A stretch of DNA of 12,136 nucleotides from Candidatus Cryosericum sp. (GTDB lineage: Bacteria; Caldisericota; Caldisericia; Cryosericales; Cryosericaceae), in the NCBI GenBank assembly GCA_049699855.1, contig JBNAWM010000043.1:1-12136 (forward strand), read 5' to 3'. A program made the translations under genes and the position numbers. This document shows positions 1 through 12,136 of the stretch, in pieces; position 1 is the first letter of the stretch; each line of letters opens with the position of its first letter. Below the pieces are notes generated by a model that saw nothing but the letters and a program-made list of their open reading frames with translations, had not been told where the DNA came from and made no database searches.

Positions 1-40
1 ACTCAAGGATCGGATGCGTGGTGATACGGCTGTCTTCCAC
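1..40 (-). CDS. 5' end (13 codons, runs off the window) of a divergent gene, probably a (2Fe-2S)-binding/FAD-dependent oxidoreductase (dye-linked proline dehydrogenase alpha / sarcosine oxidase alpha-like)
   Basis: Minus strand has SD GAGGTG (51..46), a 5-nt spacer and GTG at 40..38, reading MEDSRITTHPILE to the window edge. RIxxHPIL is an N-terminus I recognise from this family. Too short for the ORF track, and only 13 residues are visible. Confidence 0.55.
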   Translation of the reverse strand, partial: MEDSRITTHPILE

Positions 41-77
41 TTTTTCACCTCTCCACTACGAACTTGCTTTCCATTGG

Positions 78-106
78 AGTATAGAATCCATTTTCCGTTT
101 TTCCAG
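78..106 (-). promoter_or_regulatory. Possible sigma70-type promoter for the divergent gene
   Basis: -10 TATACT at 83..78 (5/6 match). The -35 at a 17-nt spacer (CTGGAA, 106..101) is poor. Confidence 0.3.
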
Positions 107-214
107 GACCAGTGAGAAACATCGCATCACTGCAAGCGATAGCGTACCCGTGGAGACAAATGAGAGAACATGTCCACACGGCCTATCTGGGAGGTTCCAA
201 AATCGTCTGCTGAC

Positions 215-242
215 TTGAACACCTTCCCAATCGGCGTACCAT
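215..242 (+). promoter_or_regulatory. Possible sigma70-type promoter for the 723-aa AOR
   Basis: TTGAAC (215-220), 16 nt, TACCAT (237-242), upstream of the strong SD AGGAGGT (265-271). Confidence 0.35.
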
Positions 243-276
243 GTGAGCGGATTCACGACCAATCAGGAGGTGGACG

Positions 277-2448
277 GTGAAGAGTATTGCCGAAATGCGA
301 CAGGAACACAAGATCCTGGCAACCTACACGTTTGTGCCGGGACAGGTGCATGCCGGGTACACCGACCGGCGGCTCTATGTCAATTTGACCACAAACGTCA
401 TCGAAGAACGGATCATCGAACCCATGGTCAAGGAGAAGTTCACCGGTGGCCGAGGCTATGGCATGTACTATCTGTGGCAGGCGATAAAGCCAACCACACG
501 ATGGAATGATCCCGAGAACGAGCTCATCTTCACCGCTGGCCCGTTGACCGGGCTGACACAGTACCCGGGCACCGGCAAGGCTCATTCCGTGACGATCTCG
601 CCGGAGACGGGCGTACCCGTCGACAACAACGGCGGCGGCTACTTTGCTCCATTCATGAAGTTCTCTGGGTTTGACTGCATCGAGTTTCAGGGCAAGGCGA
701 TTCAGGATGTCATTGTGGTCATCGATGGCAACAAGGGCGTGGTCACCATTGAGACGGCTTCCGACGAACCGACCGACAGCTACGAACTTCCAGAAGTTCT
801 GCACGCCATGTACGCTGACGGTGACAGCGACCGCAAAAACGTCAGCGTGGCCACGTCCGGCGCTGGAGCCGAACACTCCCTGATCGGCATCATCAACCTC
901 AGCTACTGGGATGCCAAGAGAAACCACGCCCGCATCAAGCAGCTTGCGCGCGGCGGACCTGGTACGGTGTTCAGAGACAAAGGGCTCAAGGCTGTTGTCG
1001 TCCACTTCAGCGGTACGACCCCTCTGTTGACCAACCCGGTGGATCTCGAACCCATCAAGTTCGCCGGAGCACGCATCAACAAGGAGATCCTGACGCTTGA
1101 CCATACGCACAGCCGCATGCGTGAAATCGGGACAGGCAACACGGTCGACATCCTGGACAAGTGCGATGTCCTGCCAGTCATGAACTACCGCTTTGGATCC
1201 GATCCGCGCACGCCGAAGATCGGGAGCGACGTCTGGCTGAACCTCATCACCCAGAACATGCCTGATGCCTGCTGGATCGGCTGTACCATGTCCTGCGCCC
1301 ATGGCGTCGACAACATCGAACTCAGGACGGGTCCGCTCAAGGGCCAGAAGGTGCTGGGGGATGGCCCCGAGTACGAAACCATCGGCGGACTGGGCGCCAA
1401 CACAGGTAGCTTTGACCCCCACTTTGTGCTTGAGGCGAGCTTCTACTGCGACTATTATGCTCTCGATCTCGTCGCCATGTCGACGATTCTTGCCTTCTTG
1501 ATGGAGTGCTACGAGCATGGCATCATCACCAAAGAGGTGACCGGCGGCCTTGACCTGCACTTCGGCAGTGACATGGACGCACTTGAACTCATTCATCAGA
1601 TCGGCCAGGGACGCGGCTTTGGAAAGGCAGCGGGATTGGGCGTCCATCGTCTCAAGAAGCTCTTCATCGAAGAGTACCATGCCGACCCTCGCTTCGTCAA
1701 CGACATCGCGATGGAAGTCAAGGGAATGGAGGTCTCGGAGTACAACTGCAAGGAATCGCTGGTCCAGCAGGGCGGCTATGCCATGGCCAACAAGGGACCT
1801 CAGCATGACGAGGCCTGGCTGATCTTCATGGACCAGGTCAAGGGCCAGCTGCCCACATTCCCTGACAAGGCTGAGTCGCTGTTCTTCTTCCCGCTGTTCC
1901 GCACCTGGTTCTCGCTCATGGGATTGTGCAAACTGCCATGGAACGATTCCGAGCCGCCGTCCAACCGCAACTACTCCGGTCTGGAAGCCGCAAAGATCCC
2001 GGAGCACGTGGAGAACTATCTCATGCTGTTCAAGGGAATGACCGGCATTAACCTCGACCTCGACGGATTGCTGGCCCAGAGCAAGCGCGTCTATGACTTC
2101 CAGCGCATGTTCAACCTGCGCATGGGCCAGGGAACGCGCAAAGACGACTGGATGCCCTACCGCGGCATGGGACCAGTGACCGAGGAGGAATATCTGTCTC
2201 GCCAGGAGCGCTACGACAAGCAGCTCACCGAAGAGGCCCACGTTGACATCGCAAAGATGAGCCTTGCAGAGAAGATGTCTGCTCTGCGTGAATACCGGGA
2301 ATCACAGTACCGCCAGCTGCAGGATGTCGTCTATGCCCGTCGTGGATGGGATGAAGACGGCGTGCCAACAGTCGAGACACTGAAAGCGGACGGCATCGAC
2401 TTCCCCGAGCTGGTCGAGCTGGCCGAGAAGCACTCGCACAAGAACTGA
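277..2448 (+). CDS. Tungsten-containing aldehyde:ferredoxin oxidoreductase family protein (AOR/WOR), divergent long form, 723 aa
   Basis: SD AGGAGGT 5 nt before GTG. AOR-family motifs: GGRGYG, DPENELIFTAGPLTG, SPETG..DNNGGG, ARGGPGTVF..KGLKAV, CWIGCTMSC (FeS ligands), GPEYET, KGME, GLCK, and C-terminal YARRGWDEDGVPT. Confidence 0.93.
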   Translation: MKSIAEMRQEHKILATYTFVPGQVHAGYTDRRLYVNLTTNVIEERIIEPMVKEKFTGGRGYGMYYLWQAIKPTTRWNDPENELIFTAGPLTGLTQYPGTGKAHSVTISPETGVPVDNNGGGYFAPFMKFSGFDCIEFQGKAIQDVIVVIDGNKGVVTIETASDEPTDSYELPEVLHAMYADGDSDRKNVSVATSGAGAEHSLIGIINLSYWDAKRNHARIKQLARGGPGTVFRDKGLKAVVVHFSGTTPLLTNPVDLEPIKFAGARINKEILTLDHTHSRMREIGTGNTVDILDKCDVLPVMNYRFGSDPRTPKIGSDVWLNLITQNMPDACWIGCTMSCAHGVDNIELRTGPLKGQKVLGDGPEYETIGGLGANTGSFDPHFVLEASFYCDYYALDLVAMSTILAFLMECYEHGIITKEVTGGLDLHFGSDMDALELIHQIGQGRGFGKAAGLGVHRLKKLFIEEYHADPRFVNDIAMEVKGMEVSEYNCKESLVQQGGYAMANKGPQHDEAWLIFMDQVKGQLPTFPDKAESLFFFPLFRTWFSLMGLCKLPWNDSEPPSNRNYSGLEAAKIPEHVENYLMLFKGMTGINLDLDGLLAQSKRVYDFQRMFNLRMGQGTRKDDWMPYRGMGPVTEEEYLSRQERYDKQLTEEAHVDIAKMSLAEKMSALREYRESQYRQLQDVVYARRGWDEDGVPTVETLKADGIDFPELVELAEKHSHKN

Positions 2449-2466
2449 CACAGTTCGTGCTTTTGT

Positions 2467-2497
2467 TCCCTCCCTGAGCGGCATGCTCAGGGAGGGA
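2467..2497. terminator. Perfect 13-bp stem hairpin after the AOR stop; likely terminator or mRNA-stabilising stem
   Basis: TCCCTCCCTGAGC (2467-2479), loop GGCAT, GCTCAGGGAGGGA (2485-2497). It starts 18 nt after the stop codon. The U-tail is weak (TTGACATT). Confidence 0.6.
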
Positions 2498-2526
2498 TTG
2501 ACATTGCATCTGGATTGGACGACAAT
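2498..2526 (+). promoter_or_regulatory. sigma70-type promoter of the ArsR gene (predicted leaderless)
   Basis: Perfect -35 TTGACA (2498-2503), 17-nt spacer, -10 GACAAT (2521-2526), then 6 nt to the ATG at 2533. Confidence 0.65.
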
Positions 2527-2532
2527 ACAACC

Positions 2533-2895
2533 ATGGACGACCGCGAGAGAATACACTGCGAACTGACGGCTCACATGTTCCGGGCGCTGGCCAACCCCAT
2601 GCGCATCTTCCTGCTGGACAAGCTCAGGGAGAGACCGTGGTGTGTCTGCGAACTGGCTGCCGAGGCAGGAATTGGCAAATCGGTCGCCTCTAAACACTTG
2701 TCCATGTTGAAAGAGGCTGGACTGGTAGAGTCAAAGAAAGTCGGCACGGAGAACCAGTATTCTCTGGCAGCACCTTGCGTCATCGAATTGACGTCCTGCG
2801 CAGAAGGCACGATTCTTACCAACCGCAAAAAGTCACTCTACCTCGATTTCGCCACTCCCGACGACACCGACAAGCCCTCCGGCGCCGGAACGTAG
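2533..2895 (+). CDS. ArsR/SmtB family winged-helix transcriptional regulator, 120 aa
   Basis: FRALANPMRIFLL..L....CVCELA...GI.KS..SKHLS.LKEAGLV...K.G....YSL matches the ArsR HTH pattern. ATG 2533 is preferred over TTG 2515 because the TTG lies inside the predicted promoter spacer. Confidence 0.9.
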   Translation: MDDRERIHCELTAHMFRALANPMRIFLLDKLRERPWCVCELAAEAGIGKSVASKHLSMLKEAGLVESKKVGTENQYSLAAPCVIELTSCAEGTILTNRKKSLYLDFATPDDTDKPSGAGT

Positions 2896-2915
2896 CCGCG
2901 CCAGCCTTCGGGTTC

Positions 2916-3749
2916 CTATCCCGAGATAAAGTTCCTCAGCCTGTCGAAGAACAGGTCTGTCTGTTCAAGATAGACGGAGTGGGCGCATTCGGGCACTGCC
3001 TCATAGGTTGCTCCAAGAGCTGAGGCTGCCGACTCCTGAAACCAGGGCGGAATCAGGCGGTCCTGCGCTCCTGCAAGGACAAACATGGGAAAGTCTTTTC
3101 CGAGGTAGTCGCTACGACGGTCATCAACAGCGAGCAGCCAATCCCGCTGGGCATCCATGAGACGAATCAGCCTGTACACCTTGTCCTTGAACCCCAGCAT
3201 GTGATGCTTGGCAGCCTCCACCGCCTCTTCGTGGGCACGAACGTACTTTTCACTGAACATCTTCTCGTACAGATACTCCGGGTAGACATCAAAAGGCAGT
3301 CCACGATACCAGCGCAGCGAAAGGTCCAGATACATCTCGAACAGCCGCGCCCGCTCCAGCAGCACACCGGACAGGAACAGCCCTCTGATTCGTTCTGGAT
3401 GCAGGCGCAGTACCTCGAGGCCGACGAAAGCGCCATACGATGCGCCCATTATCCATGCTCTGTCGACGTTATTGGCATCGAGCACGGCATCCAGCGCATC
3501 TGCGAATGGCTCAAGGCTGTAGGGAACGTCAGGAGCATCGGACTGACCCTGGCCAAGGTAGTCGTACAGCACGACATCGACGTCATCCTGAACATAAGGC
3601 AGATATTTGTTCCAGGAACTGGTGCTGGATGCCATGCCGTTCAGGAAGACAAGGACGGGGCGATCAGTTACCCCACGGCGCTCCCAGTGGTACTGATACC
3701 CATCCACTTGCACACTGCCATTTACGACTTCCTGCTTTCCTTCGTTCAT
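2916..3749 (-). CDS. Alpha/beta-fold hydrolase, 277 aa
   Basis: SD AGGAGG (3760..3755). Motifs: LVFLNG (oxyanion-hole region), DYLGQGQSD, nucleophile elbow GASYG, acid in AGAQDRLIP, catalytic His in CAHSVYLE. It starts 36 nt after the GRE stop on the same strand. Confidence 0.9.
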   Translation of the reverse strand: MNEGKQEVVNGSVQVDGYQYHWERRGVTDRPVLVFLNGMASSTSSWNKYLPYVQDDVDVVLYDYLGQGQSDAPDVPYSLEPFADALDAVLDANNVDRAWIMGASYGAFVGLEVLRLHPERIRGLFLSGVLLERARLFEMYLDLSLRWYRGLPFDVYPEYLYEKMFSEKYVRAHEEAVEAAKHHMLGFKDKVYRLIRLMDAQRDWLLAVDDRRSDYLGKDFPMFVLAGAQDRLIPPWFQESAASALGATYEAVPECAHSVYLEQTDLFFDRLRNFISG

Positions 3750-3785
3750 CTCATCCTCCTTTTGGATCGAGTTTGCAGAGCACCA

Positions 3786-6143
3786 TCAAAACGCCTGCTG
3801 CTCTGTCCGTGCGATGATCTCCTCCTGCAAGCCAGGCGTCAGGTCGCAGAAGAAGTCGCTGTAGCCGGCCACGCGCACGATGAGGTCACGGTATTTCTCG
3901 GGTTCGGCTTGAGCGGCGCGCAGTGTCGCGGCCGTGACGACGTTGAACTGGATGTGGTGGCCGCCCAGCGTAAAGTACGAACGGATCAGGTGCGTCAAGG
4001 CCTCCAGGCCTGCCTCGCCTTCCACCAGTGACGGCGAAAACTTCTGGTTGAGGAGGGTACCGCCGGTGCGCACATGGTCCATGCGGGCCGCAGACTGGAT
4101 CACGGCCGTGGGTCCCTTCCGATCTGCCCCCTGAACCGGCGATATGCCGTCTGACAGGGGCTGCCATGCCTTGCGGCCATCGGGCATGGCTCCGGTTACC
4201 GAGCCAAAGTAGACGTGAACGGTCGTGGACAGATAGTTCACGTGGTACGTCCCTCCCTTGGTATTGGGACGCCCGTCGATCGCATCAAACACCACGTCAA
4301 ACAGCCGAGCCAGGATGTCGTCAGCAGCGGCATCATTGTTCCCATACTTGGGCGAGCGGTTCCAGAGCATCAAGCGCGTCTTCTCATGACCAACGAAGTC
4401 TGCATCGACGGCGTCCAGGACCTCGTCCATGGTCAGGTCCTTCTGGTCAAAGACATGCGCCTTGAGCGCAGACAGACTGTCAGTACAGCTCCCCGGTGAA
4501 GTCACCTGAATGTAGGTTGAGTTGTACCGCGGACCACCATCGTTGTAGTCACGCCCGCGCGCGATGCAGTCATCTACGAACAGCGACAGGAAGGGCGCAG
4601 GCATCTGCTGTGCATACAGCCGCTCGATCACGTTGCTGCCGCGCACCTTGATGTCCACGAAGCGGTGCAGCTGCGCCGTGAAAGCCGCAAACAACTGGTC
4701 ATAGCTGGCAAACAACCGGGGGTCGCCTGTGCGCAGACCGATGACTTTGCCCGTCCGCGGGTCGAGGCCGTCGTGCAGAGCCACTTCAAGAATCTTGGGC
4801 AAGTTTAGGTAACCAGTGAGGATGTACGCCTCACGCCCGAAGGCGCCTGTTTCGACACAGCCGGACGTCCCGCCCATGCGTGCATCGACCACCGACTTCC
4901 CTTGGCGCAGCAGCTCTTCGACAACCATGTCCGCATTGAACACGGAAGGTTGACCCCACCCTTCGCGGATGATTGCGGCCGCCCGTCTGAGGAAGTGGTC
5001 CGGGCTCTTGCGGCTGAGCTGGATGTTGGAGGATGGCTGCAGCAGGTGCATCTCGTCGATGACGTCGAGCAAAAGATAGCTGACCTCGCTCACCCCGTCC
5101 GAGCCGTCCGGGCGCAGGCCCCCAACGTTGATATTGGCAAAGTCGGTATAGGTGCCGCTTTCAGCCGCTGTCACGCCCACCTTGGGTGGTGCCGGCTGAT
5201 TGTTGAACTTGACCCAGAAGCACTCCAGGAGTTCCATGGCTGACTCGCGGGTCAGTGTGCCATCGGCAAGCCCTTTCGTGTAGAACGGCTCCAGGTGCTG
5301 ATCCAGACGGCCAGGACAAAACGAATCCCAGGTATTGAGCTCGGTCACGACACCCAAGTGGACGAACCAGTACGCCTGCAAGGCCTCCTGAAAGGTGCGT
5401 GGAGCATGTGCGGGGACCCAGGAGCAGACCTCGGCAATATCCAGAAGCTCCACTTTCCGCGCGGGGTCCATCTCCGCCTCGGCCATCGAGCGGGCCAGGG
5501 CGGCATTGCGCTCTGCATAGCCAATCATGGCATCAGCTGCGATGGCCATGGCACGAAGCTCCTCGCGGCGCGCGGTTGCCTGCGGGTCGTTCAGGAAATC
5601 GAGGCTCGCAATGGCTTCTTCGACCTCTTCCTTCAGCTCCAGCAGCCCCTTGCGATAGATGACATCGCCCAGCACTGTGTGCCCCGGCGCCCGCTGCTCC
5701 ATGAACTCGGTAAACACGCCGGCTTCGTACGCATCCTTCCATGCGGGTTCCATCAGGGCAAAGATGCGGTCGCGTATGGATCGTCCGTTCCACGCAGGGA
5801 TGATTTCTTCCTGCTGGATCCGGCGCCCTTCCTCATCGACTTTGTATGATGTCTTCTCGCGGCGGTCGAGAACATCGAGGTCTTCCATACTGTGACAGCA
5901 CAGCTCCGGGAAGGTTGGCACCACTTTGGGCGCTGGGCCCCGCTCGCCCACGATCAGCTCACCGGGCCCAATGAACAGCTGCTTGTGCTCAAGAATGTAC
6001 TGCAGGAGACGCGCGCGGTAGACAGGCACCGACAATCCGCGCGCCTGCCGGTCGAACTCCGTCACCAGATGCGCCCGCTCCAGCGACAGCCTGGGAATTG
6101 CATCCAGGCTCTCTTGACGCAATCGTGCAACACGCTCATTCAT
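3786..6143 (-). CDS. hypD: Glycyl radical enzyme, trans-4-hydroxy-L-proline dehydratase-like, 785 aa (true start MNERVARL at 6143)
   Basis: Gly loop RVAGYS and Cys loop GTSGCVETG. HypD-type signatures FTEFMEQRAPGHTV, ELNTWDSF, KFNNQPAPPKVG, ESGTYTDFANIN and EAYILTGY retain the residues equivalent to C. difficile HypD H160, D278, S334, D339, F340, C434, E436, Y450 and T645 (numbering from memory). SD GGAGGT lies in the last codons of the activase, 4 nt before the ATG. Confidence 0.85.
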   Translation of the reverse strand: MNERVARLRQESLDAIPRLSLERAHLVTEFDRQARGLSVPVYRARLLQYILEHKQLFIGPGELIVGERGPAPKVVPTFPELCCHSMEDLDVLDRREKTSYKVDEEGRRIQQEEIIPAWNGRSIRDRIFALMEPAWKDAYEAGVFTEFMEQRAPGHTVLGDVIYRKGLLELKEEVEEAIASLDFLNDPQATARREELRAMAIAADAMIGYAERNAALARSMAEAEMDPARKVELLDIAEVCSWVPAHAPRTFQEALQAYWFVHLGVVTELNTWDSFCPGRLDQHLEPFYTKGLADGTLTRESAMELLECFWVKFNNQPAPPKVGVTAAESGTYTDFANINVGGLRPDGSDGVSEVSYLLLDVIDEMHLLQPSSNIQLSRKSPDHFLRRAAAIIREGWGQPSVFNADMVVEELLRQGKSVVDARMGGTSGCVETGAFGREAYILTGYLNLPKILEVALHDGLDPRTGKVIGLRTGDPRLFASYDQLFAAFTAQLHRFVDIKVRGSNVIERLYAQQMPAPFLSLFVDDCIARGRDYNDGGPRYNSTYIQVTSPGSCTDSLSALKAHVFDQKDLTMDEVLDAVDADFVGHEKTRLMLWNRSPKYGNNDAAADDILARLFDVVFDAIDGRPNTKGGTYHVNYLSTTVHVYFGSVTGAMPDGRKAWQPLSDGISPVQGADRKGPTAVIQSAARMDHVRTGGTLLNQKFSPSLVEGEAGLEALTHLIRSYFTLGGHHIQFNVVTAATLRAAQAEPEKYRDLIVRVAGYSDFFCDLTPGLQEEIIARTEQQAF

Positions 6144-6144
6144 G

Positions 6145-7041
6145 TCAACCTCCGACTCTTGCTTCAATGCCCGCGCTTGCAAACACACTCCGGATTCTGT
6201 CCATATGTTCAGTGGAGGGAGTCTCAAGCTCAGCAAGCTGATATACCCTTCCAAGTCTTGCGTACTTGTCCGTACCCATGCGGTGATAGGGCAGCAGGTC
6301 GATCTCGCGCAGCCCAAGCCCCTGCATCATCGCAATCATCCGCTCAAGGTTGTCGCTGCCATCGTTGACGCCGGGGATTACGGGGAATCGTACGATGACA
6401 TGGGCATGGACTGCCGCCAGCGCTGCGAGGTTGGCAAGGATCATCTCGTTTCCTGCGCCCGTCCACTTCCTGTGCTGCGTCGTATCCATGTGCTTGATGT
6501 CGTACAGGAATACGTCCACTGCTCCAGCGGCGTTCAGCAGTTCGCCTTGACCAACCATCCCGCTCGTCTCGACAGCCGTCGAGATACCCTCCAAGGTGCA
6601 CGCCTCGAGCAGACCTCGCAGGAAGGCAGGCTGGGCAAAAGGTTCACCACCAGAGAACGTGACGCCCCCACCCGACTCCTCAAAGAAGAGACGGTCCCGC
6701 ACGACTTCAGTCATCACGCCCTCTACGGTCATCATGCCACCCGCCATCGTCCGGGCTCCGGCAAGACAGGCATCCACACATGCTCCGCATGCCATGCAGG
6801 CGTCCGTCGCCCCCGGAACCCCATCCACCAGTACGGCGGCACCGGCCGGGCACGCCTTCACACAATCGCCGCACCCGATGCATCGCTCGACCATGATCAT
6901 CAACTGCGTACTCGGTTCCTGGCTTTCGGGGTTGTGACACCACTGGCATGCCAGCGGACAGCCCTTGAGGAACACGACCGTGCGTATCCCCGGCCCGTCA
7001 TGTAAAGCGTAGTGCATGACATTGAACACCATGCCGGTCAT
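6145..7041 (-). CDS. Glycyl-radical enzyme activating protein (radical SAM) with 2x[4Fe-4S] ferredoxin insert, 298 aa
   Basis: HDGPGIRTVVFLKGCPLACQWCHNPES (CxxxCxxC). Insert CIGCGDCVKAC...CMACGACVDAC. Also GGVTFSGGEP, VETSG, YDIKHMD and LLPYH. Its stop is 1 nt before the GRE ATG. Confidence 0.95.
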   Translation of the reverse strand: MTGMVFNVMHYALHDGPGIRTVVFLKGCPLACQWCHNPESQEPSTQLMIMVERCIGCGDCVKACPAGAAVLVDGVPGATDACMACGACVDACLAGARTMAGGMMTVEGVMTEVVRDRLFFEESGGGVTFSGGEPFAQPAFLRGLLEACTLEGISTAVETSGMVGQGELLNAAGAVDVFLYDIKHMDTTQHRKWTGAGNEMILANLAALAAVHAHVIVRFPVIPGVNDGSDNLERMIAMMQGLGLREIDLLPYHRMGTDKYARLGRVYQLAELETPSTEHMDRIRSVFASAGIEARVGG

Positions 7042-7094
7042 GCGTCTGGCCTGTCCCGCCCAATCATCAGTGCCATCGACGATCGTCGTTTCAT
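7038..7094 (-). CDS. Putative leaderless 18-aa upstream ORF (MKRRSSMALMIGRDRPDA) overlapping the activase start (ATGA)
   Basis: The ATG at 7094 is 6 nt after an extended -10 TGcTAGAAT. The TGA at 7040..7038 overlaps the activase ATG at 7041..7039. The activase has no convincing SD of its own. Confidence 0.4.
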   Translation of the reverse strand: MKRRSSMALMIGRDRPDA

Positions 7095-7100
7095 GGCGTC

Positions 7101-7128
7101 ATTCTAGCACAACCCACGACAAGGTCAC
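7101..7128 (-). promoter_or_regulatory. Extended -10 promoter of the activase-hypD-hydrolase operon
   Basis: TG-C-TAGAAT at 7109..7101, with GTGACC at 7128..7123 (16-nt spacer) as a -35. Confidence 0.55.
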
Positions 7129-7212
7129 ATTAACGATCCATGAAGATGGCTTTGCCCCTCCAAAAGAAGACAAGCCGGTTCAGCTCCAGTTCTGGATGAG
7201 TCGATGCGCTGG

Positions 7213-7240
7213 TTGTTCTTTGTATCTCCTCGCCTACAAT
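7213..7240 (+). promoter_or_regulatory. sigma70-type promoter of the moaD-like gene
   Basis: TTGTTC (7213-7218), 16 nt, TACAAT (7235-7240). SD GAGGTG follows at 7248-7253. Confidence 0.5.
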
Positions 7241-7258
7241 GGTTGCTGAGGTGCCACG

Positions 7259-7528
7259 ATGGCGATGGTAACGGTGAGAGTCTACTTGACTGAGGAATTC
7301 AAACAGGGGGCTGTTCCCGTGACGGCATCGAAGTATCTGGAAGCACTGCAGAGTCTGGTTGCGCAGTATCCAGTTCTCAAGGGTGTCATCCTGGGCACGG
7401 ACCTGCAGCTGAGAGGAGACTACATTTATCTCCTCAACGGGCGAAGCGTGGAGTTTCTGGGAAAGGGAGACACGCCGCTGGGGGATGGCGACTTCATAGC
7501 GGTCTTTCCACCGGTCGGGGGTGGATAG
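7259..7528 (+). CDS. moaD: MoaD/ThiS family ubiquitin-like sulfur carrier protein, 89 aa
   Basis: LLNGR...L....T.L.DGD.IAVFPPVGGG with a C-terminal di-glycine. SD GAGGTG is present. Such genes are typical neighbours of AOR genes. Confidence 0.88.
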   Translation: MAMVTVRVYLTEEFKQGAVPVTASKYLEALQSLVAQYPVLKGVILGTDLQLRGDYIYLLNGRSVEFLGKGDTPLGDGDFIAVFPPVGGG

Positions 7529-7531
7529 TCA

Positions 7532-7564
7532 GACCAGGCGCGGGGCGTAGCGCCTGGTCGTTTG
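7532..7564. terminator. GC-rich hairpin between the convergent moaD-like and FAD-oxidoreductase genes; likely terminator
   Basis: GACCAGGCGC (7532-7541), 8-nt loop, GCGCCTGGTC (7550-7559), followed by GTTTG on the + strand. Confidence 0.6.
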
Positions 7565-7579
7565 ATACACGGCAGTTTG

Positions 7580-8809
7580 CTACAACGCTGTCTTGAAAAC
7601 GGACGGGTATAAGTCGGCGTGTGTTACCGTCCCATGCAGAACCGACTCGACCATCGGACTGATGTTCGTCTTCTCTTTCATCATCCTCAGGTAAACGCCA
7701 GGGTTGAGGGCGCCTTCCCCGACAAAGACAAAGCCGCGTAGCTGTCCGTCCTTTACGACGATCTTCCGGTATTCGCCATCACTTGCGTACCGGTAGACCT
7801 CTCCCTCATCACGGGTGCTGATTCCACCGGTGAAAATCGTCTGTCCAAAGACCGTGAGGATATTTCTCAGCACATCGCCCGGATATGTCGTCGCCATGCC
7901 AAGCATATTCGCGGCAGCCGTGTTTGCCTGCTCAATAGCGACTGGCCAGAGAGCATGAAGCGTTTTCTGTCCCAGCAGGAGATCATCTGTTTCAACGGCA
8001 TCGCCGGCGGCGTAAATGTCCGGCACGTTCGTTTCAAGGTACTTTCCAAGAACAATTCCCTTGTTAAGCTGGACATCGCTGCCCTTCAGGAAGCCGGTAT
8101 TGGGGCGAACGCCTTTGCCGTAGACGACACAGCAGCCGGTGAGGACTTTCCCTGATGCGAGTTTCACCTCCAGGGCATCGCTCTGTTCCTTGATCTCTGC
8201 AATGTCCTCGCCCTTGAGCAGTTCCACATCGAGTCCTGCAAATGCCTTCTCGATGATGGCAGAAGCCTCCTTGTCGACAATCTGCGACAACATCCTGTCC
8301 GAGGAAATAACATAGGTGACGGGGATGCCAAGCTTCACCAGCGCGTCGCCCACCTCGGCATTGACCAGCCCGGCGCCCGACAGAATAACCCTCTTCTGGG
8401 AGGACTCGGCGATTCTCTTCTTGATGACCTCGACGTCTCCAATGTTTCGTACCCCGACGACAGCAGAGAGTCTGGAGCCCGGGATGTCGGGAATGAACGG
8501 TGACGTACCGGTTGCTATCAGCAGTCTATCATATTCATACTGCCCACCATCGCGGGTGTGGACTGTCTTGGCGACGGTGTCGATGCTGTCCACACCCTTG
8601 TTCAACATGACATCCACCCCGGCAGCCGCGGGAAGCGTGCAGTTGTCAAACCACGTCATCCCGGAGAGGATGTAGGGAAGGGACATCTTGCCATAGGGTG
8701 CAACGCCCTCCGCCGAAAGCACCGTCACCTCCTGCTCCGGGCTGAGCTGCTTGATTCTCGCAGCCGCCGTCATCCCTGCGATTGACGCACCAACAATCAC
8801 GTGTCTCAT
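7580..8809 (-). CDS. NAD(P)/FAD-dependent oxidoreductase (pyridine nucleotide-disulfide fold; AorC-like), 409 aa (true start MRHVIVG at 8809)
   Basis: FAD motif VIVGASIAG, YDRLLIATG, dinucleotide motif ILSGAGLV, GVRPN, ETNVPDIYAAGD and WPVAIEQA. The ATG overlaps the AOR stop (ATGA, 8809..8806). Confidence 0.9.
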   Translation of the reverse strand: MRHVIVGASIAGMTAAARIKQLSPEQEVTVLSAEGVAPYGKMSLPYILSGMTWFDNCTLPAAAGVDVMLNKGVDSIDTVAKTVHTRDGGQYEYDRLLIATGTSPFIPDIPGSRLSAVVGVRNIGDVEVIKKRIAESSQKRVILSGAGLVNAEVGDALVKLGIPVTYVISSDRMLSQIVDKEASAIIEKAFAGLDVELLKGEDIAEIKEQSDALEVKLASGKVLTGCCVVYGKGVRPNTGFLKGSDVQLNKGIVLGKYLETNVPDIYAAGDAVETDDLLLGQKTLHALWPVAIEQANTAAANMLGMATTYPGDVLRNILTVFGQTIFTGGISTRDEGEVYRYASDGEYRKIVVKDGQLRGFVFVGEGALNPGVYLRMMKEKTNISPMVESVLHGTVTHADLYPSVFKTAL

Positions 8810-10623
8810 GACAAATCTTGGAGTCCCAGCTCTTGCAGCCTTTCCTTCGTGGGGACACTGTCCTCGCCCCATCCTCTCAGCGAGTAGTATTCGCCCAGCA
8901 TCCTGTCCAGGTCTTCAACCTCTCCCTTTGAGGGTCCGGTGACGACCGGCTCATGCAGAATCCTTGGCGGCAAGGTGTCGTCCTTTCCGGTCAGGCCTGC
9001 CTTCAGGTTGAAGAGCTTCTCCATGTTCCAGATCCGCTCGCCAATCTTCAAGAACTCCTTCTCGTCGCACTCAAACCCCGTGGCCGCGGAGTACAGCTGA
9101 GCAAAGTCCGTGGCCTGCAGTCCAAATGTCGTAAACAGGCAGATGCCCAGCGAATCGAGCGCTGCTGTCAGGTCTTGCAAGAACTTCGTGACGGCTGCCT
9201 TGCCCTCGTACGCCAACCGGTCAAGGCCAGGCGAGAGCACCTCGGCAGCGATGGTGTAGCCTCTGACATGGCAGGCACCCCTGTTGCTGGTTGCATATTC
9301 AAGACCAATCCCTTTGACGCCTCGCGGGTCATAGGCGGGGAACTCCTGCTTCTTCACGGACATGGACAGTTCTGGATGCCCATAATGCTCGGCAAGTCTG
9401 TACGACCCCTGCGCCAGCAACTTCCCAAACGCGTCCTTCTGCTCTCCCATGGCACGAATGGATTCAACGAGAGCGTCAGGATCACCAAACTTCAGAGGGA
9501 AGGGGGCGTCCCCTGCCGGCATATACCCTTTCTCATAGAGCTCCATGGCACAGGCAACTGTCGACCCGGCCGAGATTCCATCAATGCCATAGCGGTCCGT
9601 CAGATAGTTTGCCATGGTGATGGCATTCAGATCGGAAACACCGCACATGGCCCCTAGCGACCAGATAGGCTCATACTCGGGCCCGCCACCGTGCTCGCCC
9701 TTGTACTTGCCTTCCTTGATGACCGTCACCCTTCCACAGGCAATCGGGCAATCCGAACATCCTTCGTTCCGCACCAGGTTCTGCGCACGCAGCGTCTCAC
9801 CGCTGATTTTGTCTGCCTCGGCAAAATAGGCGTCCTGAGCGTTCCTCGTAGGCAATGAACCCACAGAATTGATAATATTCACGAGAACTGCCGTTCCATA
9901 CAAGGGGAGCCCTCCGCTGGCAACGGGGTTCTGCGCGAGAATCTCGCGTGTTGACCGCACAGCCTCCAGAAACTTGTCGTGATCGGCAACCGAAACGCCC
10001 TTGTTCCCGCGCACGACGATGCCCTTGAGATTCTTGCTGCCAACCACTGCTCCAACACCTGTTCTGCCCGATGCTCTGTGCCCGTTGAACATGACGTTGG
10101 AAATCATGGACAGCTTCTCGCCGCCTGGTCCGATCTCCATGGTCTCAGCTTCGAGATGCGTTTCCTCCCGCAGCAGGCGGTCAGTGTCGTTGACAAGCTT
10201 GCCCCACAAATGCTTTGCATCACGGAACTCGACCTTGCCCTTGTTGATCCACAGGTACACGGGCTCGCTGGCCTTCCCTTCCAGGACAATCATGTCATAT
10301 CCCGTTCTCTTCAACATCGGGCCGAAATAGCCCCCAGCGTTGGAACAGGCAATGGTATTGTTGAGAGGGCCCTTGGTAATCACCATGACCCTGCCCGATG
10401 AAGGGGCAGTCGTCCCGTCCAGAGGACCAGTTGCGATGACAACCTTGTTTTCGGGGGAGAGCGGGTCTGCCTTGGGGTCTACCTCGTCCACGATGATCCG
10501 CGTACCATATCCCCTTCCACCAATGTATCTCTTTGCCCAGTCCTCACGCAGCGCTTCTTCCTTGACACTGCGGTCGGTGAGATTTACCCTGAGAATGGTT
10601 CCCTGATATCCTCCGTCCATCAT
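8806..10623 (-). CDS. aor: Tungsten-containing aldehyde:ferredoxin oxidoreductase catalytic subunit (canonical AOR, AorB-like), about 605 aa
   Basis: Motifs IGGRGYG, DPLSPEN, SNAGG, GRTGVGAVVGSKNLKG, CSDCPIACG, GPEYE, DRYGID, KKQEFPAYDPR, RGACH, DSLGIC and YYSLRGW. SD GGGGGTG and ATGA overlap with the upstream gene. The start could be 10623 or 10620. Confidence 0.95.
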   Translation of the reverse strand: MMDGGYQGTILRVNLTDRSVKEEALREDWAKRYIGGRGYGTRIIVDEVDPKADPLSPENKVVIATGPLDGTTAPSSGRVMVITKGPLNNTIACSNAGGYFGPMLKRTGYDMIVLEGKASEPVYLWINKGKVEFRDAKHLWGKLVNDTDRLLREETHLEAETMEIGPGGEKLSMISNVMFNGHRASGRTGVGAVVGSKNLKGIVVRGNKGVSVADHDKFLEAVRSTREILAQNPVASGGLPLYGTAVLVNIINSVGSLPTRNAQDAYFAEADKISGETLRAQNLVRNEGCSDCPIACGRVTVIKEGKYKGEHGGGPEYEPIWSLGAMCGVSDLNAITMANYLTDRYGIDGISAGSTVACAMELYEKGYMPAGDAPFPLKFGDPDALVESIRAMGEQKDAFGKLLAQGSYRLAEHYGHPELSMSVKKQEFPAYDPRGVKGIGLEYATSNRGACHVRGYTIAAEVLSPGLDRLAYEGKAAVTKFLQDLTAALDSLGICLFTTFGLQATDFAQLYSAATGFECDEKEFLKIGERIWNMEKLFNLKAGLTGKDDTLPPRILHEPVVTGPSKGEVEDLDRMLGEYYSLRGWGEDSVPTKERLQELGLQDLS

Positions 10624-11111
10624 GGATTCACCCCCTTGGCCATCTCTGAGGCAATACGCCGATATGCCTCAGCGACTCCGTGCTGCTTGCTCGAGACCTC
10701 ATCCTCGACCTCTACATAGGTCAGCGCCTCCGCCTTGCATACCTTGACGCAGGCAGGATCTCCACCGCACTGATCGCACTTGATGATCTCCTTGCCCAGA
10801 TGGTTGAGCTTGATGGAACCCCATGGACAGGCAACCACACACTGCTTGCAACCGATGCACTTCTCCTTGAGGAAGTCGACCAGACCAGTCTCCGTGTTCT
10901 TCACCAGAGCAGAAGTGGGACAAACCTCTGCGCAGTACGGTATCTCACATTGACTGCAGACCGTCGGGACAAATGTGAGATCTTCATGGAAGGTGATCAC
11001 ATTGATCCGGGAATCCAGTGGATTGAAGACATCCGTCTTGGCAAACGAACATGCGTCCATACATGCCCGGCAACCAGTACATTTCGCCGGCTCAAGTACA
11101 AGTACCTTCAC
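10620..11111 (-). CDS. 4x[4Fe-4S] electron-transfer protein (DmsB/CooF-like; AorA-like), 163 aa (true start GTG at 11111)
   Basis: CTGCRACMDAC, CSQCEIPYCAEVC, CIGCKQCVVAC and CDQCGGDPACVKVC give 16 Cys. SD AGGAGG (11124..11119) lies 7 nt before the GTG. Confidence 0.93.
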   Translation of the reverse strand: MKVLVLEPAKCTGCRACMDACSFAKTDVFNPLDSRINVITFHEDLTFVPTVCSQCEIPYCAEVCPTSALVKNTETGLVDFLKEKCIGCKQCVVACPWGSIKLNHLGKEIIKCDQCGGDPACVKVCKAEALTYVEVEDEVSSKQHGVAEAYRRIASEMAKGVNP

Positions 11112-11130
11112 ACTCGCGCCTCCTTGATGC

Positions 11131-11226
11131 AATTCCCTTTCCAAGCGCGGGAGGCACAGGAGTTTTCTCCGGTGCCCTATGGCTTCACTCCGTAGCATCT
11201 GCCGTAGGCCATGAAGCTCGGGTACC
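11131..11226 (-). ncRNA. Moco RNA motif riboswitch lacking P3 (tungsten-cofactor/Tuco-type variant) in the aorABC leader
   Basis: Minus strand: GGTACCC-GA-GCTTCAT-GGCCTACGGCAGATGCTACGGA-GTGAAGC-CAT-AGGGCACCGGAG-AAAA-CTCCTGTGCCT-C-CCG-CGCT-TGG-AAA-GGGAATT. It carries the Moco signatures CCGAG, CCUA..UAYGG, AGGG and CCUCCCG....UGGAAAGG. P1, P2, P4 and P5 all pair. Only 3 nt separate P2 and P4, so there is no P3. Confidence 0.85.
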
Positions 11227-11229
11227 TTA

Positions 11230-11257
11230 CTCATACTTCATCTGCGAAAATTGTCAA
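11230..11257 (-). promoter_or_regulatory. sigma70-type promoter of the aorABC-like operon
   Basis: Perfect TTGACA (11257..11252), 16 nt, TATGAG (11235..11230). The predicted start falls at the 5' strand of riboswitch P1. Confidence 0.6.
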
Positions 11258-11287
11258 GGATTTCTGTTGGAAGGACAGTTCAGTGCC

Positions 11288-12136
11288 TTATCGGTCCCTC
11301 GGTCTCTCCCTGGGCCCGATGATGATCGTGTGCGTCGGGATGCCCAGCGTATGACGATACTTCAGGACATGGCGCTCGTCATCCTTGAGAAATGTGCCGT
11401 CCGTCATCCACACGGAATAGCCAAACGGATACTGCAGCGGGGGCACAAAGATCTCAGTAGGCTCAATGATGCCGGGGTCATGACGGAAGGTGAACCGCAG
11501 GACCCTGCGGCGCATATCGAAGGACAACGAAAGAGGCTCGCCGGCCGTGGCAATGGGATACGGACGCACGAGAGCACGCAGAGCACGCCCGCCTTTGTCG
11601 AGGACCCGCACGTCGCGCCCTTGGTCTGCACTCCAGATGGACAGGTCTTCGCCGTTCCAGCCATCGCCACGCTCATTGGTGTTGCTCGCCGTGTAGTTCC
11701 AGATCGTCGCTGAACACAGGCTGCCTTCCACCGCGGACAGGCTCCGATCCATGAGTGCCTCCTGCTCGCTGAAGTCGCCCGTTCGGAACGCCTGTCCCCC
11801 GCGCAGATCATACTTGATGCCGATTTCACCAATCAGCGTGGGGCCATGCAAGCGCTCCGTCCCTGCCGTCGCAGCGTAGCCAGCTGCCAGGCAAAACTGC
11901 GACGGATGGCCCATGGTCCGATGACCACGCGGTGACGCAGGAAGTCGTACCCAAGCCACCTGCTCATCCGCTTCAGAAGCAACGGAACCATGTCATACCA
12001 GTGTGGCGCAGAAACCAGTCCCGTATAGCCATCGCCTACCAGGGGCGGAGGCGACTCAACCTCACCCTCGACAAAGATCAGCGCTGACGGATCTACCATC
12101 CGGATGGCGTCCACGTAGCGACGCACAAAGGGGACA
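11288..12136 (-). pseudogene. Glycoside hydrolase family 5 (endoglycoceramidase / steryl-beta-glucosidase-like, GH5_12-type) with GH5 C-terminal domain; 5'-truncated by the window and frameshifted near 11862
   Basis: Frame 1 (open from the window edge, stop at 11833) has IFVEG and APHWYD. Frame 2 (to 11288) has PTLIGEIG (nucleophile Glu), WNY, GDGWNGEDLSIWS, GGRAL..LVRPYP..TAG.P and PTEIFVP..QYP.GY. One extra base at CAG-GG-ACG joins the two frames. Confidence 0.75.

Follow-up and report, generated by a model that had tools for sequence, protein, structure and literature searches.

The window analysed here is a whole 12,136-nucleotide (nt) stretch from Candidatus Cryosericum sp. (assembly GCA_049699855.1, contig JBNAWM010000043.1, positions 1 to 12,136). 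Its minus strand carries a three-gene operon for an AOR-family tungsten enzyme, headed by an RNA leader that we refer to as the aorB leader. A preliminary description had proposed that this leader holds a P3-less aptamer of the molybdenum cofactor (Moco) riboswitch family, wired to turn expression on. We find that the aptamer is a true member of the Rfam family RF01055 of the P3-less type, and comparisons with orthologous leaders and with other leaders of the family make it likely that it is a functional translational ON switch for the tungsten AOR complex.

The first gene of the operon encodes a 4Fe–4S small subunit (WorS-like, 163 amino acids (aa), 10620..11111, minus strand) and starts with GTG; in orthologues the corresponding position is occupied by ATG or GTG. 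The AOR-family tungstopterin subunit follows (605 aa, 8806..10623, minus strand; AFOR_N, E 2.8e-79), its ATG overlapping the stop codon of the 4Fe–4S gene. This subunit matches PDB entries 9mqx, 9g7j, 1aor and 8c0z with E values of 1e-177 or better, and its nearest named relatives, at 89–91% identity, include Candidatus Cryosericum records. The third gene (7580..8872, minus strand) encodes a FAD/NAD oxidoreductase subunit (WorN-like; best match NF045765, below cut-off) and probably starts at the Met codon at 8809, overlapping the AOR stop. This three-subunit layout resembles that of the class III tungsten oxidoreductase (WOR) and the Aromatoleum aromaticum AOR (WorLSN), in which the FeS, tungstopterin and FAD subunits are encoded in one operon (PMC13328260), and the large subunit is 49% identical to an Aromatoleum AOR. 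A difference is that the one Aromatoleum locus scanned with Rfam (L088) gave no RF01055 match.

As the leader of FeS, AOR and FAD subunit genes, the aptamer stands where a molybdenum or tungsten gene leader is expected. The genome, which is 97.9% complete, has four AFOR genes and a TupA-like gene (below the equivalog cut-off), and a search with TIGR01256 for ModA found none; together these provide the tungsten-linked context of the P3-less subtype. It also has two xanthine-oxidase-family genes and two DMSO-reductase-family genes.

Aptamer identity and anatomy

The Rfam covariance model RF01055 matches the minus strand at 11235..11118 over its full length (1–135) with 62.3 bits (E 2.7e-13; gathering threshold 36) and with P3 deleted, which bears out the family assignment of the preliminary description. 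We place the aptamer at 11131..11226 on the minus strand, to which all coordinates in this and the next section refer, on the basis of this match and of covariation of P4 in orthologues. Stems P1, P2 (11217–11182), P4 (11177–11152) and P5 (11151–11141) surround the conserved junction. P1 had been given as GGUACCC (11226..11220) with GGGAAUU (11137..11131). These coordinates are right; the 7-base-pair (bp) stem, however, includes an A–A mismatch, its contiguous pairs are the three G–C pairs of the core (CCC 11222–11220 with GGG 11137–11135), and a transcription start predicted inside P1 would leave 3–4 bp. In 20 orthologues the covariation score of P4, which served as a positive control, was matched by none of 500 shuffles.

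P4 has one C–U mismatch and, in register, an AAAA loop, where RF01055 members are recognized by a GNRA tetraloop together with a receptor in P2. Among the 27 orthologous aorB leaders the loop is AAAA in 13 and GAAA in 14, and 62.3 bits falls inside the orthologue range of 50–67. A few members of the family lack the GAAA loop or the receptor (PMC2408646), and the AAAA loop therefore weakens this copy and not its assignment to the family.

The tungsten specificity of P3-less RNAs would follow the hypothesis inherited from Regulski 2008. P3-less ‘Tuco’ (tungsten cofactor) RNAs made up 58 of 176 in PMC2408646, where a tungsten cofactor was proposed for them from gene context and binding could not be shown. 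In the literature searched we found no direct test of this ligand, proposed in 2008, and the structure of the riboswitch is described as unknown (PMC11672702).

Ribosome-binding site and its pairing partners

A candidate −35 box (TTGACA, 11252..11257) recurs as TTGACA or TTGACT at an equal distance from the aptamer in the aorB leaders of the Cryosericum group. The candidate −10 box, 16 nt away (TATGAG, 11230..11235), is TAnnAG within the genus and TAAAAT or TATAAT in outgroups; a strict promoter scan passed it over, since its position 6 is not T. Transcription is thus predicted to start at about 11224–11222, 6–8 nt after the −10 box, which probably leaves the opening bases of the 7-bp P1 out of the transcript.

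The Shine–Dalgarno sequence (SD; AGGAGG, 11119..11124) lies outside P1, 6 nt past GGGAAUU, as first described, and 7 nt before the start codon. The GTG at 11111 is 24 nt downstream of GGAAAGG, and the leader lacks the SD inside P1 that marks moaA-type OFF switches; a terminator scan and a motif check found no terminator and no second anti-SD between aptamer and SD. Two other starts were rejected: an in-frame ATG at 11234 is inside the candidate −10 box and has no ATG counterpart in orthologues, and an in-frame TTG at 11132, which would put an SD in P1, is 3 nt past SD-like bases and is TCG or TAG in many orthologues. The leader shares with the Escherichia coli moaA riboswitch its aptamer family, stems P1, P2, P4 and P5 around the junction, and a position in cis in the leader of pterin-cofactor genes. 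It differs in lacking P3, in having AAAA for GAAA and an SD outside P1, and in preceding a cofactor-using enzyme with predicted ON control, whereas OFF control of moaA was demonstrated by reporter (PMC2408646).

The preliminary description had identified a helix that could sequester the SD. In it, the 3′ strand of P4 and the adjoining CCUCC (11150..11163) pair with 11123–11112: ACUC (11163..11160), a CU bulge and GUGCCUCC (11157..11150) oppose GGAGGCGCGAGU (11123..11112). The 12 bp with one G–U pair and a 2-nt bulge (−19.4 kcal/mol) are all present, and 85% of the pairs form in 20 orthologous leaders. Several observations weigh against singling this helix out. Of 488 further start regions with GGAGG in this genome, 24 pair with the strand at least as well, which puts the helix only borderline above chance, and shuffling the flanks of the SD gives p 0.29. 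Covariation did not exceed that of shuffles in the 20 leaders (shuffles reaching the observed values on five measures: 379, 136, 355, 341 and 288 of 500), cognate pairing was no better than permuted pairing (p 0.97), and the extension beyond the core was no better than background in distant orthologues and in a close relative (L209).

A second helix competes with it. The P5 loop CGCGCUU (11143..11149) can pair with AGGCGCG (11121–11115) while P4 stays intact, and 5 of the 488 GGAGG start regions match it in strength. In the register of the aorB copy its covariation is not above shuffles. When the register is shifted by 2 nt, shuffles reach the number of paired cells in 3 of 500 cases and the score in none, a signal that comes mostly from one pair (A–U in 11 leaders, G–C in 7, unpaired in 2), in the third register tried, and for which the tree suggests only about 2–3 events. 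All register tests used the 20 of 27 distinct aorB leaders that are of equal length. The predicted balance depends on the transcript: for an RNA starting at 11223 the ensemble probability is 0.78 for the P5-loop helix and 0.10 for the P4-strand helix, and for one starting at 11226 it is 0.23 and 0.72, respectively. We conclude from these pairings that the strand running from P4 through CCUCCC to P5 may capture the SD in two or more registers; the P4-strand helix is one option and not an established one.

Folding predictions for the lineage as a whole point to switching: when P1, P4 and P5 are imposed, GGAGG becomes over twofold more open in 25 of the 27 aorB leaders (median about 1,200-fold), although in the close relative L209 the imposed aptamer fold closes it. 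For the aorB copy itself the cost of opening the SD (window −13..−5) falls from 4.7 kcal/mol in the free ensemble to 2.1 kcal/mol in the aptamer fold, so that by computation the SD is paired without ligand and open in the aptamer fold; the gain in GGAGG, however, is small. Part of the opening is forced, because CCUCC belongs to the aptamer consensus and GGAGG to the SD consensus. The opening cost drops by more than 1.4 kcal/mol in 30 of 40 enzyme leaders with an outside SD, compared with 6 of 36 supply leaders of the terminator type; 9 records were skipped, and only leaders of up to 130 nt were counted.

These predictions also bear on the possibility that the lineage has an ON switch of which this copy is now weak or non-switching and merely damps translation, which we consider improbable. 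The copy is degenerate (AAAA loop, C–U mismatch in P4, one base fewer at the P2–P4 junction, 3-bp P1), its aptamer fold lies 6.6 kcal/mol above the free ensemble, its predicted GGAGG gain is 1.7-fold (3.5-fold with three more 5′ bases), and the unconstrained folding energy of the leader is unremarkable (z −0.70). Decay is countered by a covariance score within the range of the orthologues, among which the AAAA loop is common, and by the changes in P4 being largely compensated: the altered strand pairs with its own ribosome-binding site (RBS) at −19.4, against −11.4 for the common orthologue strand. On modelling grounds the aorB copy appears to be among the weaker switches of its lineage.

Expression platforms across phyla

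The genome holds a second RF01055 copy (L002; G000:C23:11905-12022, minus strand), also P3-less, with the SD inside P1 and a start codon 7 nt after GGAAAGG. It precedes an S-layer-anchored (SLH) TupA-like gene, with moeA downstream on the same strand. Its sequence has the moaA-type OFF layout and would serve as a matched OFF control in the same genome. The layout with the SD outside P1, by comparison, is found in all 27 distinct aorB leaders, drawn from Caldisericota, a group within Atribacterota and a single Thermotogota bin.

The survey covered 229 distinct leaders. Genome searches supplied 166 of them; the other 63 came from a metagenome pattern in which a downstream GGRGG was obligatory, a biased set that was tallied separately. 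In addition, 9 loci lacked a core match and 2 matches lacked an anchor. First genes were clustered and named by Pfam. Leaders counted as ON-like if they had an SD outside P1 and no terminator, a terminator that begins within the 3′ strand of P1, or a P4-capture hairpin followed by a U-rich tract. In the 166 genome-derived leaders, those of pterin-enzyme genes were ON-like in 35 cases, OFF-like in 1 and unclear in 3, and those of supply genes were ON-like in 4, OFF-like in 85 and unclear in 7; the test left out 31 records whose first gene was of another kind or absent. Expressed as lineage units, the ratio of ON-like to OFF-like was 16:1 for enzymes and 2:39 for supply genes. The classes were defined after the data had been viewed and kin are not independent, which counts against this separation; for these reasons, and because five genomes were entered for carrying an AOR, the Fisher p values overstate it.

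The same aptamer strand is the antiterminator in OFF leaders, where cognate pairing (−14.9) exceeds permuted pairing (−12.7 ± 0.4, n = 44), better than all 20,000 permutations. In the 16 enzyme lineages with an outside SD, the excess of cognate pairing between strand and RBS is modest (p 0.010, with the negative control at p 0.050); relative to shuffled flanks, cognate pairing has a mean z of −0.73 against −0.10 (p 0.012), and the aorB copy has z −0.5.

Unchanged rules were then applied to a hold-out of 66 new loci, which were the best-scoring and not all matches of three further phylum searches. AOR-family first genes were ON-like in 3 cases and OFF-like in 1; supply genes were ON-like in 1, OFF-like in 18 and unclear in 3 (p 0.009 for AOR alone, p 0.031 with formate dehydrogenases included). 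The OFF-like AOR locus and the two formate dehydrogenase loci (0:2, both OFF-like) run counter to the pattern. In the Bacillota loci L386 and L398, which are OFF-like exceptions among enzymes, tandem RF01055 copies with separate terminators precede formate dehydrogenase alpha subunits.

The distance rule failed. It miscalled 11 of the 14 hold-out records with an outside SD, and ‘SD 15–60 nt outside P1’ was dropped as a stand-alone ON marker. All 11 came from the Cloacimonadota search and stand before a secreted-looking protein (9) or an aldehyde dehydrogenase (2); they carry a sequestor (anti-SD) hairpin of their own, 44–60 nt long, and the aptamer fold closes the SD by 0.1–8.8 kcal/mol. For the three AOR-linked records with an outside SD, the change in SD opening was +5.4, −0.1 and +6.5. 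Because OFF leaders of this kind bring their own sequestor, an ON reading depends on a linker that is short and lacks a further anti-SD, as is the case in the aorB leader. The secreted-looking protein, about 270 aa long, occurs behind OFF-type leaders with a separate SD sequestor at 17 loci of the Cloacimonadota search (L404–L431, for example L417:1652-2482). It has no Pfam match at 1e-12 and no NCBIfam match (three tested). In the Atlas it clusters as hypothetical, a weak lead points to PF00174, and it is a candidate new metal or pterin uptake protein.

Other arrangements were seen along the way. In Caldisericota and Atribacterota, the leaders of a second AOR clade (L028, L044–L048, L309) contain a variant with a short P2, a GCAA or GUAA loop and a terminator that begins within the 3′ strand of P1. 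The small genome G256 has 13 RF01055 copies, nine of them before pairs of Tat-type FeS and AOR genes (L356–L365; next genes checked in 8 of 9, all AFOR_N). In each of these nine leaders of WorS–WorL paralogues, a P4-capture hairpin is followed by a U-rich tract. The helix of the hairpin has 13 bp and is of the same kind as the P4-strand helix; 116 of its 117 cells are paired, and 41 of 500 shuffles matched it. RF01055 copies also precede NAD-type aldehyde dehydrogenases, both within the genus (L012, L025, L033, L035, L039) and elsewhere (L003, L030, L411, L429). Best models for these proteins are glutamate-semialdehyde (pyrroline-5-carboxylate, P5C) dehydrogenases, the proteins being partial and below cut-off, and the layouts, with the SD in P1 or a sequestor, suggest a cofactor-free back-up that would be off when tungsten cofactor is present.

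Within the window, the AOR operon is closely followed on its downstream side by genes for HypD (trans-4-hydroxyproline dehydratase; match above cut-off) and the HypD activase (3786–7041, minus strand). The product of HypD is P5C, which makes glutamate semialdehyde a candidate substrate of the operon’s AOR. A MoaD/SAMP-like gene (7259–7528, plus strand) follows the operon on the opposite strand, and a second, divergent AOR-family gene (723 aa) occupies 277–2448 on the plus strand, with no aptamer in the 276 nt between it and the contig end. A core profile was also used to look for diverged aptamers ahead of the genome’s three further AOR genes, and it recovered only the two known copies; one of the three genes is 277 nt from a contig end, and for another the sequence covered was the 330 nt upstream, which lie within the preceding gene.

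Direction of control

The literature searched contains one model for a comparable leader, and it has the opposite direction. In Eubacterium limosum, which has five P3-less copies, one of them before wor1, ligand binding was proposed to inhibit WOR1 translation through a separate RBS sequestor, and WOR1 mRNA was unchanged on tungsten limitation (PMC11725836). The two leaders are alike in having a P3-less aptamer before a tungsten oxidoreductase operon with proposed translational control; they differ in that the strand predicted to act as anti-SD in the aorB leader is part of the aptamer itself. As printed, the wor1 leader has a hairpin from the P1 3′ strand and then U-rich bases, which would be ON-like under the present rules when judged by eye. 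That WOR1 mRNA did not change argues against ON control of transcription at that locus. In Sporomusa ovata, aor1-2 mRNA rises about 30-fold with tungstate, with no mechanism or riboswitch given (PMC4973070). No ON model for RF01055 was found in the literature searched, which included the available text of PMC2408646, PMC7266159, PMC10043782, PMC11477304, PMC7653027, PMC12318220, PMC11672702 and PMC3766115; the supplementary alignment of PMC2408646, which possibly shows platforms per gene, was outside the search.

We regard moaA-like OFF control of the aorB leader, whether by an alternative start in P1 or by a sequestor able to form only next to the folded aptamer, as very unlikely. The E. limosum model, the OFF-type hold-out leaders with an outside SD, a weak hairpin that remains over the SD in the aptamer fold and the in-frame TTG 11132 after GGAAAGG all favour it. 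The TTG, however, is poorly spaced and poorly conserved, as described above. The hold-out OFF leaders have their own anti-SD hairpin, whereas the internal motif is found in 0 of 45 discovery leaders with an outside SD; and the aptamer fold raises the opening cost in those OFF leaders, where for the aorB copy the sign is opposite.

An ON element that responds to a ligand other than the tungsten form (Moco, molybdopterin or either metal), or that works mainly through mRNA stability or Rho-coupled termination, seems to us about as improbable as decay of the copy. The equation of P3-less with Tuco is a correlation, the genome has the xanthine-oxidase- and DMSO-reductase-family genes noted above, and the predicted start inside P1 places the aptamer at the 5′ end of the transcript, which makes a route through mRNA stability or Rho conceivable. 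On the other side, both copies precede tungsten-linked genes, TupA-like is present where ModA was not found, and folding predicts control at the level of the SD in most orthologues.

For the translational ON switch that we favour, the proposed direction draws on the OFF-type sister copy and on the concentration of ON-like platforms on AOR-family genes, and the part of the preliminary description that specified the exact helix did not hold up to the same degree. The analysis shows family membership, geometry, gene context, conservation and the association across the class; we infer the start site, ligand, direction, register and translational coupling as follows. Transcripts from about 11223 would carry an aptamer held by a P1 of 3–4 bp, which would therefore have marginal stability. 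In the absence of ligand, the segment that extends from the P4 3′ strand across CCUCCC to the P5 loop would pair with the RBS 13–25 nt past P1, in one of two or three registers (the P4-strand or the P5-loop helix), and block initiation at GTG 11111. A metal-pyranopterin, probably the tungsten form, would stabilize the P1/P2/P4/P5 junction, withdraw the strand and open the SD, and overlapping stop and start codons would pass control on to the AOR and FAD subunits. At the sister copy the same signal would shut off tungstate uptake and cofactor synthesis.

Across several phyla, we somewhat favour a two-way use of RF01055 built on one switching strand (the 3′ side of P4, CCUCCC and the P5 loop). 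OFF control would act on metal uptake, on cofactor synthesis and on aldehyde dehydrogenases that are cofactor-free. Tungsten AORs would be under ON control, exerted through three separately built platforms, namely SD capture as at the aorB locus, a terminator from the P1 3′ strand and a terminator from the P4 strand. Adenine add/pbuE and glycine gcvT are ON-type riboswitches in which the ligand withdraws a switching strand from a terminator or SD. The glycine riboswitch is an ON switch (PMC7161355). The aptamer and ligand of the aorB leader differ from these, and the wiring is not new in principle; as it is common in other riboswitch classes, this would be a new use of a known element and not a new kind.

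If true, the two-way reading would reverse the published OFF model for WOR leaders and provide a gain-of-signal sensor of tungsten cofactor. The ON version would give a positive read-out, and the genome offers a matched ON/OFF pair of one aptamer. An ON switch would also offer an explanation of how anaerobes keep from producing iron-rich apo-AOR when tungsten is lacking, and is relevant to work on AOR-dependent alcohol production.
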